Shown piece by piece: positions 12,625 through 15,402 of a DNA stretch of 44,281 bases (positions are counted from its first letter, which is position 1; each line of letters opens with the position of its first letter). This DNA comes from an uncultured Clostridia bacterium (GTDB lineage Bacteria > Bacillota > Clostridia > Christensenellales > UBA1242): assembly GCA_944332315.1 (NCBI GenBank), contig CALVJT010000018.1:1-44281 (forward strand). The letters are read 5' to 3'. Below the pieces are notes generated by a model. That model was not told the DNA's origin and made no database searches. It saw only the letters and a program-made list of their open reading frames with translations. The position numbers were made by a program, and so were the translations under genes.

Positions 12625-12846
12625 AAACGCCTCCTATAAATAATATAGTACGCGGTATTTTGCAATTGTGTGATGTCAATAAAATAGCATTTTGTTTTTT
12701 ATAAGTTTTATAATTTTTAGATAGATAAAAATTTAGCAGTTGACTTTTTGAAAACCCCTACTAAAAATATCTAAACAGCGCTGAACCTTCAAGCACACCC
12801 AGAAGCAATCTTTTATAAAATTTGTTTTATAAATTTAGTTCTAACT

Positions 12847-13415
12847 TTATCTATTTTTTATCTCTAAGCCATCTTTGAAAGCGTTTCCAACCCTTTCGCC
12901 AATTTTATAATAGCCGTGAGTATAAGGGTCAAAAGCTATGGCATCTAAAAGCGAAATATCCACTTTATCGCCATTCAAAACACTTTCCTCGGCAGATACA
13001 TTTATAATTTTGCCAATAACACCGCACCCGTATTGCCCGCCTTGGTGTTTAACAAATTCACATTCTATGCAAATAGGAAATTCGCTTATAATCGGTGCAT
13101 CAACTGCATCAGATTTAACAGCAGTCAACCCGCTTTTTGCAAATTTATCCTTATCCACATTTGCCGAACTCATACCAAAATAATCTGCCTCAATAACATG
13201 TTTTGCATCAGCAAGGCTCACAGTAAACGCCTTTCTTTGCTTAATATTTTTTACAGTTTTATGAGATTCAGTCAAATTCAAAATAATATAATCGCGCTCA
13301 AGCATAGTTCCCCACGCAGCATTCATAACATCCACGCTATCATCCTCGTTATAAGTAGCTATCATAAGCACAGGCATAGGAAATATCACTTCAGTTGTAG
13401 AAATACTTTTTTCAT
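12847..13415 (-). pseudogene. Flavin reductase family protein with a 1-nt frameshift just after the start codon
   Basis: The body has PMPVLMIATYNED...NAAWG, IKQRKAFTVS and PICIEC. SD AAGGAGG precedes ATG 13415, but ATG-A6-GT reads MKKVFLQLK*; A7 would give in-frame MKKSISTTEVIFPMPV. Confidence 0.7.
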
Positions 13416-13502
13416 AATTCCTCCTTATTAACACTACTATTTTAACAAAATTTATTATTTTATACAAATAAAATTATATCACTTATTTAATTTTTTAAAC
13501 TA

Positions 13503-13534
13503 AAAAAGTATAGCTGCCACATACTATACTTTTT
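13503..13534. terminator. Intrinsic terminator downstream of the poly-G surface protein gene
   Basis: AAAAAGTATAG-N10-CTATACTTTTT. Confidence 0.7.
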
Positions 13535-13583
13535 GCTAACTTCTACACTTAGTGTGTGTAATTTATCTATTCCTTGCACGCCA

Positions 13584-15258
13584 CTATTCAAAAGCAGGCA
13601 TATTTATTGTAATATCTTCTTTGTAGACTATAGTAAATTCCTTTCTAGTCCACATCTCACCTGCATCTATCAAAGGCGAATAAGAATATAATGCCTTAGC
13701 ATACTGCGTAATTACACCCCCACTAGGAGAATATTTAAAAAATTCATAAATCCACCAGTCAAGATATATGTCATCAAATACATCACTTTGAGTATCTTGC
13801 CCGGCAATTTGTTGTGATTCCAAACCAAAAATGCTACCAATTTTACTGTATATGAAATACTCATTATATGGAATCTTATCTTCACCGATGATATTATTAG
13901 AACCCAATGCGTTCTTGAGCGCCAAATAAGCATTAGATCCGTATCCTACTATCTGCACACCATCGCCTTGCTTAAGGGCTAAATCAGTTACTAGTTTCCC
14001 TTCTGTATCAAAAATGGAGCCATCAATAATAGCAGTGCTAGAAGATGAGTAGTTCATTAAATTAAAATACACTGCATACTCTTCAGTCTCAGTAACATCC
14101 GCTAGAGAAGAGCGCTCTACTACATTCTGTGCATTGTTTTCAAATATAGCAGACACTAGTATCGCTGGAGTGCTACTCGAACCATAATATAATATTATAT
14201 TAGCAGCTTGGAAATCTGGGTCATAGTCATTAAATCTACTATACCAACCTAGTGCTTCCGTAGCACGAACTAGTTCGTCTTCGATATTGAATATATATAC
14301 ATTCCACTGCCCTTCTTCATTGCTTGTCTTACCCAAAAAACTATTAATTGTTCCATAATCTATATTGAGAGACCCAGTATTATCAGAGTATTTAGAAACT
14401 AGGCTATCCGTGGCATCATTCCACATAGAACTTGCCATCAATGCTTGGACAGGGTCATAAGTCGATACCCTATCACTATACCATTTTGTTAGATCTGATC
14501 CATCGCAAACATAAATAGAATATGTATCGTCTAATGCTAAGTTTGTATAAGAAGCACTTAGGTTAACCACAAAACTATTTCTGGCACAATCTCTATCAAA
14601 AGTATTCGTTGTATCTGCATACACTACCACTTCTAATTTTGTATCTGTAATATCTGTGCCAGTATATTTGAAGTTTGATAACTGTGATAGAATATCAAAT
14701 GTCACACCCTTACGCACTTGCGTACTGGAATTCGACACAAATGCATACCCTTCATCAGATGCCGTTTCTACGGGAGTGGACATACTTGTTGTTCCATCAC
14801 TAAAACTATATGTGCCTTCTGTGAATGAAACGCCAGAAGTTATACTCTCAAATATATATTCAATACGCATATAATAATTGATGTCTAAGTTATTGTCATC
14901 TATACTAACATTTAACGAATCACCAACATTATTAAATCTCACTATTCCATTTTCATTCTGTTCATTTGTATAAGTCATCCCTATGCCAGTATCATAATTC
15001 ATTGCTGGAGTGTCCCAGTCAAAGACAATAGAGCCTGAAGCAGTTTTTGAATCACTGAGCAGTGAATAGGTCATAGATATTGCTAAAACAAAACCTAATA
15101 CAAACATAAAAAACAACAAAAAGACAAAAGTCCTCTTTTGTCTTGTATTATCCTGTTTTTTTATACATAAATTGCCATTAATTATTTTTGTAGGTTTGGT
15201 TTGTGTATTCGAATCCTTATATACCCCCCCCCCCCCCAAACATTATATTTTTTCTCAT
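13584..15258 (-). CDS. Putative phase-variable exported/surface protein (SipW-class-like signal); out of frame at the poly-G tract as assembled
   Basis: SD GAGGAGG, then ATG 15258 reads MRKNIMFGGGGGI* with G14. G13 fuses it to the 551-codon ORF, giving 557 aa with a hydrophobic segment and TYSLLSDSKTASGSIVF. Confidence 0.75.
15224..15237 (-). repeat. Homopolymeric G14 tract (C14 on + strand)
   Basis: Counted directly: 14 C at 15224-15237, starting at codon 8 of the gene. Confidence 0.95.
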
Positions 15259-15284
15259 AACATTCCTCCTCTTGCATTAACTGT

Positions 15285-15314
15285 AGTATACCACAAAATT
15301 AAAAATTATTGCAA
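15285..15314 (-). promoter_or_regulatory. SigA-like promoter of the poly-G surface protein gene
   Basis: TTGCAA-N18-TATACT with an extended -10 TG. Confidence 0.55.
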
Positions 15315-15374
15315 TTAATTTAACAAATTTATTATAAAATTATAAAAATATAAATAATATTGAAAAAAAAATTA

Positions 15375-15402
15375 AAAAACTCATTCTTTTGAATGAGTTT
15401 TT
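15375..15402. terminator. Intrinsic terminator after rplL
   Basis: AAAAACTCATTC-TTTT-GAATGAGTTTTT. Confidence 0.85.

Follow-up and report, generated by a model that had tools for sequence, protein, structure and literature searches.

A poly-G tract and the gene behind it are the subject of this analysis. Both lie on contig CALVJT010000018.1 of an uncultured Clostridia bacterium, analyzed here as one stretch of 44,281 nucleotides (nt) that is called the window and to which coordinates refer (Table 1). The target gene is on the minus strand, between rplL and a flavin-reductase gene. Its open reading frame (ORF) of 551 codons sits in the +1 frame relative to a seven-codon leader, MRKNIMF, which is preceded by an extended -10 promoter and the Shine-Dalgarno (SD) sequence GAGGAGG and followed by 14 consecutive G residues. 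An initial annotation of the DNA had described the promoter, SD, start codon, leader, G14, and the TAA that closes the leader frame as a length-dependent switch, and all of these elements are present as it described them. The tract begins 21 nt past the SD-led ATG, and a change of one unit in its length alters the reading frame. At G14 the tract is followed by GGT ATA TAA in the leader frame. With G13 or G16, the leader joins the ORF as MRKNIMF-GGGG-VYKDS..., giving 557 amino acids (aa) with G13, the figure proposed initially, and 558 with G16, whereas the product of the G15 state is predicted to end after about 26 residues. Read in this way, the sequence puts the assembled consensus in an OFF state, one G deletion short of ON. 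The start listed for the ORF, TTG 15239, is the edge of the tract and has no SD, and the protein on record is a 511-aa product that starts within the membrane anchor. The view of the gene as a stand-alone unit also holds: it has a promoter of its own, and the rplL terminator upstream of that promoter and a terminator-like hairpin past the stop codon, spotted by eye, bracket it as a separate unit.

Comparison with relatives shows that the tract is a conserved feature and that the target is not an orphan: it has two paralogues, its N-terminal part belongs to a genus-wide family, and its C-terminal domain is common to many stand-alone proteins. In a six-frame search of 61 related genomes, 10 of them from the target's genus, homologues of the N-terminal ~215 residues were found in eight of the 10 genus genomes and in none of the 51 others. 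The 26 family matches beyond the target reach identities of up to 37%. The paralogues (C55:1023 and C68:15466) are both in frame in the assembly and have the membrane anchor and the motif SMTYxLLSDSKTAxG in common with the target. Twenty family loci were fetched for tract comparison, and in 18 of them a run of G9 to G15 lies at the same position, directly past a leader of 6-10 codons such as MKNRTKVL, MKIQKKIL, or MNKRKLQ, with ON and OFF lengths mixed as the switch reading holds. The alignment has a common layout of TGnTAtAcT box, SD, ATG, 6-10 codons, G run, and then usually TA; the box is found at an equivalent place 35-45 nt 5' of the start codon in most of the loci, GGAG-type SDs are present in all evaluable homologues, and no family member has a stop in the ORF frame of the linker from tract to anchor. 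When frames were recomputed on the full loci, 17 were evaluable, of which seven are in frame (C55, L009, L010, L011, L012, L018, and L019) and 10 are out, a count that is near the 1:2 ratio expected under length drift. Every in-frame allele runs unbroken from leader through GGGG and linker into the ORF (...L-GGGG-Y/V/D...). Because these alleles read through uninterrupted, the upstream ATG is the true start and the tract is translated.

The variation in tract length among relatives that the initial annotation had anticipated is found in one homologue, P0024 (423 aa), a cluster of 22 near-identical sequences with gene calls of 390, 421, 423, and 429 aa. Locus DNA from eight independent metagenome assemblies has flanks that, over 120 nt, are identical bar one T/C in the leader, and yet tract lengths differ: four assemblies have G12, two have G10, and G11 and G13 are found once each. 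The SD-led ATG is in frame at G11 alone, the length that yields the full 429-aa product; the 423-aa calls start at a TTG without an SD and the 390-aa calls at an internal Met. Taken from assembled sequence, this spread is the signature of a hypermutable tract. A cluster look-up for the C55 paralogue returned a single sequence with zero variants.

Long homopolymers generally promote transcriptional slippage and ribosomal frameshifting, and the target ORF is intact though the assembled consensus is out of frame. Both points would suit an alternative in which the DNA is constant and RNA polymerase or the ribosome slips on the G run, giving steady low expression and no switching. The tract length of P0024 differs among assemblies at the DNA level, however, and seven family genes have in-frame DNA alleles, and for these two reasons DNA length varies and in-frame DNA is a normal state. 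Recoding from G14 would also need a net +1 or -2 shift, whereas a -1 slip leads into the third frame with its stop at 15184-15182. We therefore give recoding very little credence as the explanation of the locus, and leaky slippage may add some background expression.

Assembly quality deserves the same scrutiny. G-tracts are difficult for Illumina chemistry, and artefacts at them have been described (PMC9187656). Many contigs of this assembly break off at G tracts, past which there is low-complexity junk, for instance C37 and C53, and L037 of another assembly does so too. Such behavior would fit a sequencing or assembly artefact that hides a true and stable G13. Against it, the target tract is inside a 44-kb contig with unique sequence on either side, the run occupies the same codon position in the 18 of 20 homologous loci, which come from eight species and different assembly pipelines, and tract lengths span 9 to 15, exceeding a one-base error. 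The same explanation would alternatively make the gene an ordinary dead frameshifted pseudogene. The 551-codon frame contains no other lesion, and it is kept in a second sample, where the assembly L037 differs from the window at two of the 3,140 nt that follow the tract and likewise has the flavin-reductase and ferritin-like genes as neighbors. The target is therefore not a decaying pseudogene, since its ORF is intact and near-identical in that second sample. Artefact or pseudogene, taken together, strikes us as highly improbable. The tract of L037 itself, G20, was considered as length evidence and rejected: the 80 nt upstream of it are unrelated low-complexity sequence at a contig end with 3.4x coverage, and this upstream part is probably a chimera or the product of assembly breakdown at the tract. 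Other searches added little. The target protein retrieved the gene itself and one weak match in a homologous-protein search, a scan of genome contigs with the same protein found zero further copies, and pattern scans of JGI metagenome contigs for leader plus tract and for tract plus downstream sequence gave zero matches to the target.

The tract is also one of many in its genome. Within the window, there are eight overlapping G10 matches against 0.01 expected from dinucleotide shuffles. The assembly (1.33 Mb, 36% G+C, 77 contigs) was scanned for G/C runs, and the counts fall from 648 at length 5 through 96 at 6, 11 at 7, 5 at 8, and 2 at 9 to 0 at 10, after which 28 runs of length 11-16 appear, a bimodal distribution. 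About 22 of these 28 lie 19-27 nt past an SD-led ATG and lead into a long ORF, the G always being on the coding strand, and because of this number and this common placement the target is an instance of a genome-wide design. The initial annotation had called the switch "independent," and that word has to be given up, since the locus is one of about 28 in the genome that follow one design. It had also called the protein unrelated to the product of the other poly-G gene in the window, which is right at the sequence level. Most genome tracts belong to one large family with the leader MFFxxKKV-Gn, and comparison of the target with that family and with the poly-G gene at 44236 gave no sequence match. 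The latter gene, at the window edge, has a G12 at 44236-44247 (minus strand), 24 nt past the SD-led ATG of its ORF, which has 714 codons and belongs to the major family. Members of the major family (on contigs C2, C8, C21, C38, C39, C66, and others) have a short hairpin directly 3' of the tract, with stems that vary between members (TAGTTC...GAACTA, GTAGTA...TACTAC) and z scores down to -3; no hairpin is found directly 3' of the target tract (minimum free energy 0.0), unlike in the major family. A different context, TATAAT followed by six bases and G8 or G12, occurs at C1:498-505 and C37:4660-4671, where the runs are at a predicted transcription start or in a 5' untranslated region and not in a coding leader. 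Most leader tracts of the genome are out of frame in the consensus.

Across the comparison panel, G runs of at least 11 are abundant in all 10 genus genomes (13 to 204 overlapping 11-mer hits), moderate (17-22 hits) in seven genomes of other genera of the same family or order (G013, G018, G029, G032, G035, G055, and G058), and absent in 28 of the 61. Loss of mismatch repair as a cause of hypermutable tracts was rejected: all 10 genus genomes have an intact MutS and MutL, and the tracts therefore act in cells proficient in mismatch repair, as those of Neisseria do.

G/C tracts of at least eight bases are hypermutable in Neisseria, Haemophilus, Campylobacter, and Bifidobacterium breve. With this background and the family comparison, we think it likely that the target encodes an accessory surface protein under slipped-strand (homopolymer) phase variation. 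Transcription would start from the extended -10 promoter and ribosomes at the SD-led ATG, and after seven codons the G run would be translated into Gly. At G13 or G16, the leader would run on into the 557- or 558-residue protein, and with G14 or G15 translation would stop after 13 or about 26 residues. Slippage during replication would gain or lose single Gs at high frequency and reversibly, such that each lineage sheds both ON and OFF cells. The target and about 27 tracts of the same design could then generate combinatorial surface diversity, with phage, host immunity, or niche adhesion as the likely selective agents. Several points weigh against this interpretation. Length variation at the target locus itself would follow from the behavior of its family, the sole other assembly of the target (L037, G20) being an unreliable contig end. 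ON and OFF calls made from an Illumina consensus of G10-G15, including the G14 of the target, could be one base off. Slippage is not raised by loss of mismatch repair, with MutS and MutL intact, and its rate and reversibility we infer from what is established for G/C tracts of eight bases or more.

Table 1. Features of the target locus in window coordinates
Feature	Position	Strand	Basis
Promoter: -35 TTGCAA (15314-15309), 18-nt spacer, extended -10 TG-n-TATACT (TG 15293-15292; -10 box 15290-15285)	15285..15314	-	consensus scan, 9/12 matches with TG
Shine-Dalgarno GAGGAGG, 6 nt ahead of ATG	15265..15271	-	read from sequence
Leader ATG AGA AAA AAT ATA ATG TTT = MRKNIMF, start ATG 15258-15256	15238..15258	-	sequence
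G14 homopolymer, putative switch; G13/G16 ON, G14/G15 OFF	15224..15237	-	sequence and family comparison
TAA closing leader frame at G14, 13-aa product MRKNIMFGGGGGI	15217..15219	-	sequence
TAA closing third frame (G15 state), 14 codons past tract	15182..15184	-	sequence
Main ORF, 551 codons and stop	13584..15239	-	ORF list, translation
Terminator-like hairpin inside ORF, AAGACAAAAG-AGGA-CTTTTGTCTT (stem-loop 15144-15121), then T-rich run	15108..15144	-	terminator scan, folding
Membrane-anchor/signal segment TFVFLLFFMFVLGFVLAISM (aa 37-57), then conserved motif TYSLLSDSKTASGSIVF	15069..15131	-	translation, alignment
Family-defining beta-sandwich (predicted), aa about 75-230	14550..15017	-	AF2, pLDDT about 80-90
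C-terminal head (predicted), aa about 235-551	13587..14537	-	phmmer, AF2, Foldseek
rplL terminator, upstream of target promoter	15375..15402		
Terminator-like hairpin past target stop codon	about 13502..13534		spotted by eye
Cassette: target gene with promoter and flavin-reductase gene, 2,656 bp	12718..15373	-	comparison with empty-site alleles

In N. gonorrhoeae and N. meningitidis, pilC, like other poly-G contingency genes, has a poly-G tract in the region that codes for the signal peptide. As in the target, the tract is a few codons past the start, in the N-terminal export region, and one G more or less toggles the frame, and the target genome also resembles Neisseria in having many such loci. 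The host here is a low-GC uncultured Gram-positive-type member of the Clostridia and not a proteobacterial pathogen, however, the tracts are longer (11-16), the leader-tract module is common to whole paralogous families, and the proteins are unrelated. Homopolymer phase variation in Neisseria has been reviewed (PMC3960869, PMC3723659). In Campylobacter jejuni NCTC11168, there are 29 poly-G/C loci of 7 or more repeats (PMC4965091). The target genome is likewise small and AT-rich with about 30 intragenic poly-G/C switches. Tracts in C. jejuni are mostly found at varied positions in genes for glycan-modification enzymes, in an organism that is not known to have MutS/MutL-type mismatch repair, whereas here they hold a fixed position past the short leader of surface-protein genes in a genus with MutS and MutL intact.

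The nearest parallel in lifestyle is B. breve UCC2003, in which bbr_0113 and bbr_1889 of a sortase-dependent pilus carry an intragenic G-tract whose slippage has been shown experimentally (PMC9187656). Like the target, this is a gut Gram-positive commensal's G-tract that joins two ORFs of a surface-structure gene or keeps them apart. B. breve has one or two such loci per genome against about 28 here, and the target protein has no LPXTG sorting signal and no sequence relation to pilins, with weak fold similarity to pilin domains. A literature search found no report of a homopolymer switch for commensal Clostridia. Homopolymer contingency loci are a textbook feature of a few host-adapted pathogens, and to our knowledge Bifidobacterium pili are the sole case documented experimentally in gut commensals. 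The mechanism at the target is that of a classical homopolymer contingency switch and not new in kind. What is new is a second unrelated protein family on the leader-tract design, a strain-variable cassette, and a new domain combination.

Within the ORF there is a further element that may bear on expression. A terminator-like hairpin of 10 bp lies 79 nt past the tract, at the junction of basic linker and membrane anchor, and folds with a dG of -14.5 kcal/mol (z = -3.95; one of 200 shuffles folds as well). These properties, and the flag that the terminator scan put on it, raise the question of whether phase switching is combined with translation-coupled attenuation, such that the hairpin terminates transcription when the ribosome is absent. 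Transcription of the gene would then cease in OFF cells too, which would leave no room for internal initiation; such a layer would extend the phase-variable switch and not replace it. Both OFF-frame stops (15217 and 15182) are 38-73 nt upstream of the hairpin, as attenuation would have it. In the 330 nt past the tract, a hairpin of at least 7 bp with a T-run is present in nine of the 20 family loci, compared with 4.9% of random coding windows, which were not matched for T-rich anchor-coding sequence, and stems of at least 8 bp occur in four of the 20 against 2.1%. Where present, the family hairpins are mostly at the same linker/anchor junction. On the other hand, 11 of the 20 loci, including the C55 paralogue, have no hairpin, the target stem has just three G-C pairs, and in it Lys/Arg codons (AAG, AGA, AAA) base-pair with Phe/Val codons (TTT, GTC), a stem that protein coding alone could yield. 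A precedent for the logic is Streptococcus gallolyticus pil1, where a change of repeat length in the leader decides whether the ribosome covers a downstream terminator hairpin (PMC3894217). The strong terminator-like hairpin past the target tract is pil1-like. The pil1 leader is a separate ORF with a GCAGA repeat, in contrast to the target leader, which fuses to the main ORF when ON and so is not a separate leader of the pil1 type, and the target hairpin is inside the ORF and shared by the nine family loci mentioned. The function of the hairpin is something we infer from these features, and attenuation on top of the frame switch is in our view possible but rather unlikely.

The protein behind the switch is predicted to consist, in the order of the ORF, of a K/N/T-rich cytoplasmic linker, a membrane anchor, an immunoglobulin (Ig)-like module, and a beta-grasp-like head. 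The N-terminal module carries a KTATGxIxF motif, and the family alignment has invariant residues at L61, K65, A67, G69, F73, and P78. In the AF2 model made with this alignment, the anchor is part of a long helix (aa 31-62), and the beta-sandwich behind it has a predicted local distance difference test (pLDDT) score of about 80-90. Foldseek returned weak Ig-like matches for the sandwich among pilin, cohesin, and collagen-binding/adhesin domains, with a best E of 2e-3, and the pilin-domain matches (5xcb, 6ixy, and 3pf2) are likewise weak at E >= 2e-3. The 320 C-terminal residues seemed to be an orphan in a word-based search, and a full phmmer search then found relatives in 71 clusters with E down to 1e-46, mostly stand-alone proteins of ~320-360 aa (about 340) with a signal peptide. 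One relative of the head is a 1,028-aa protein with BspA-type leucine-rich repeat (LRR), Listeria-Bacteroides repeat, and PKD domains. The gene of a stand-alone homologue of the head, P0075 (~347 aa, L041:6001-7044), is 13 nt upstream of that for a 1,690-aa BspA-LRR/Flg_new protein and divergent from a FecCD/Peripla_BP_2 ATP-binding cassette importer, the permease of which carries a fused PQQ-type beta-propeller. The AF2 model of the head, made with 40 homologues, has a pLDDT of 89.2 and a predicted template modeling score (pTM) of 0.88. Its Foldseek neighbors are weak and of a tandem ubiquitin-like (beta-grasp) kind: 3u7z_B at a probability of 0.91, a target-normalized template modeling (TM) score of 0.60, and E = 0.1, and 2pmv and 4kki at E = 0.3-0.4. 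Among these neighbors are the DUF4430-like 3u7z and C-terminal domains from intrinsic factor and haptocorrin, and the matches no more than hint at beta-grasp units.

Family databases are silent on the protein. The statement in the initial annotation that no enzyme motif is recognized agrees with Pfam and NCBIfam, in which the target had zero matches (DUF4430, camelysin, and TasA included). Five stand-alone homologues of the head had zero matches in Pfam, and profile searches of sequences in the Protein Data Bank with the N-terminal module and the head gave zero matches as well. An LPXTG-type sorting signal, searched as [LIVS]Px[TSA][GANS], is absent from the target protein, which has an N-terminal anchor instead. 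A SipW/TasA-type signal was considered because of a supposed likeness of TYSLLSDSKTASG to the TasA signal and was rejected as unsupported, with four family N-termini giving no TIGR04088 match at E <= 10. The genome does have a SipW-type peptidase gene, and it is unlinked to poly-G genes. The product of this gene (C29:423-1562, minus strand) is a signal peptidase I of SipW/archaeal type that scores 91 bits with TIGR02228 and has a low-complexity N-terminal extension of ~220 residues; a TIGR02228 peptidase scores above the family cutoff in eight of the 10 genus genomes and adjoins zero poly-G genes. Judged by the models, the target is predicted to be an N-terminally anchored or secreted surface protein with a family-specific stalk and a swappable head.

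The suggestion that the gene is an accessory insertion is borne out by its distribution and needs one refinement, namely, that the inserted cassette also holds the flavin-reductase gene. Contigs L043, L044, and L045 have an RplL that is 100% identical and no target gene. Homology between these contigs and the window stops at 15374 and restarts at 12717, with a spacer of 197 nt between. In the three closest species, which also have no target gene, rplL is directly followed by a ferritin/CotJC-like gene, and then come a 180-190-aa gene, holB, and a PSP1-like gene. In the window, these four genes are found downstream of the cassette, and in more distant species of the genus the genes past rplL are arranged differently. 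Going by these alleles, the cassette is polymorphic among very close strains. Its G+C content of 33.5% is not much below the 37.1% of the window. Neither flanking repeats nor mobility genes were seen. The flavin-reductase ORF (12847-13467, minus strand) has a peculiarity of its own. There is a good SD and an ATG at 13415-13413, followed by A6, and the frame stops after nine codons (MKKVFLQLK*); the +1 frame holds the Flavin_Reduct ORF, which lacks an SD-led start of its own, and one additional A would join the two frames (13386-13415). This frame break is not an assembly slip, because it is identical in the independent assembly L037. It may reflect a genuine frameshift or an unusual start, or the cassette may carry a second switch, based on poly-A.

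Finding about 28 switches in a tiny (1.3 Mb) genome of an uncultured member of the Clostridia, with similar or larger numbers in sister species, matters for how such organisms are read. Gene callers mis-annotate tract genes as truncated, as the 511-aa record of the target and the 390- or 423-aa calls of its P0024 homologue illustrate. The head that is joined to the switch is a widespread, uncharacterized extracellular domain. A wider proposal is that the poly-G leader is a portable two-tier module, combining the DNA frame with a terminator that is masked in the ON state, across unrelated surface families of the genus, with 20-60 loci making up the phasome of a 1.2-1.3-Mb genome and with heads captured and exchanged as cassettes. 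We consider this proposal doubtful. If it is true, OFF cells would make neither the transcript nor the protein, the phasome would run in a genus that retains its mismatch-repair genes, and new heads, such as the beta-grasp domain that is otherwise found in stand-alone secreted proteins, would be captured and swapped as strain-variable cassettes. Metagenome-assembled genomes, each reduced to a single consensus, hide a layer of surface heterogeneity, which bears on phage resistance, immune recognition, and colonization.

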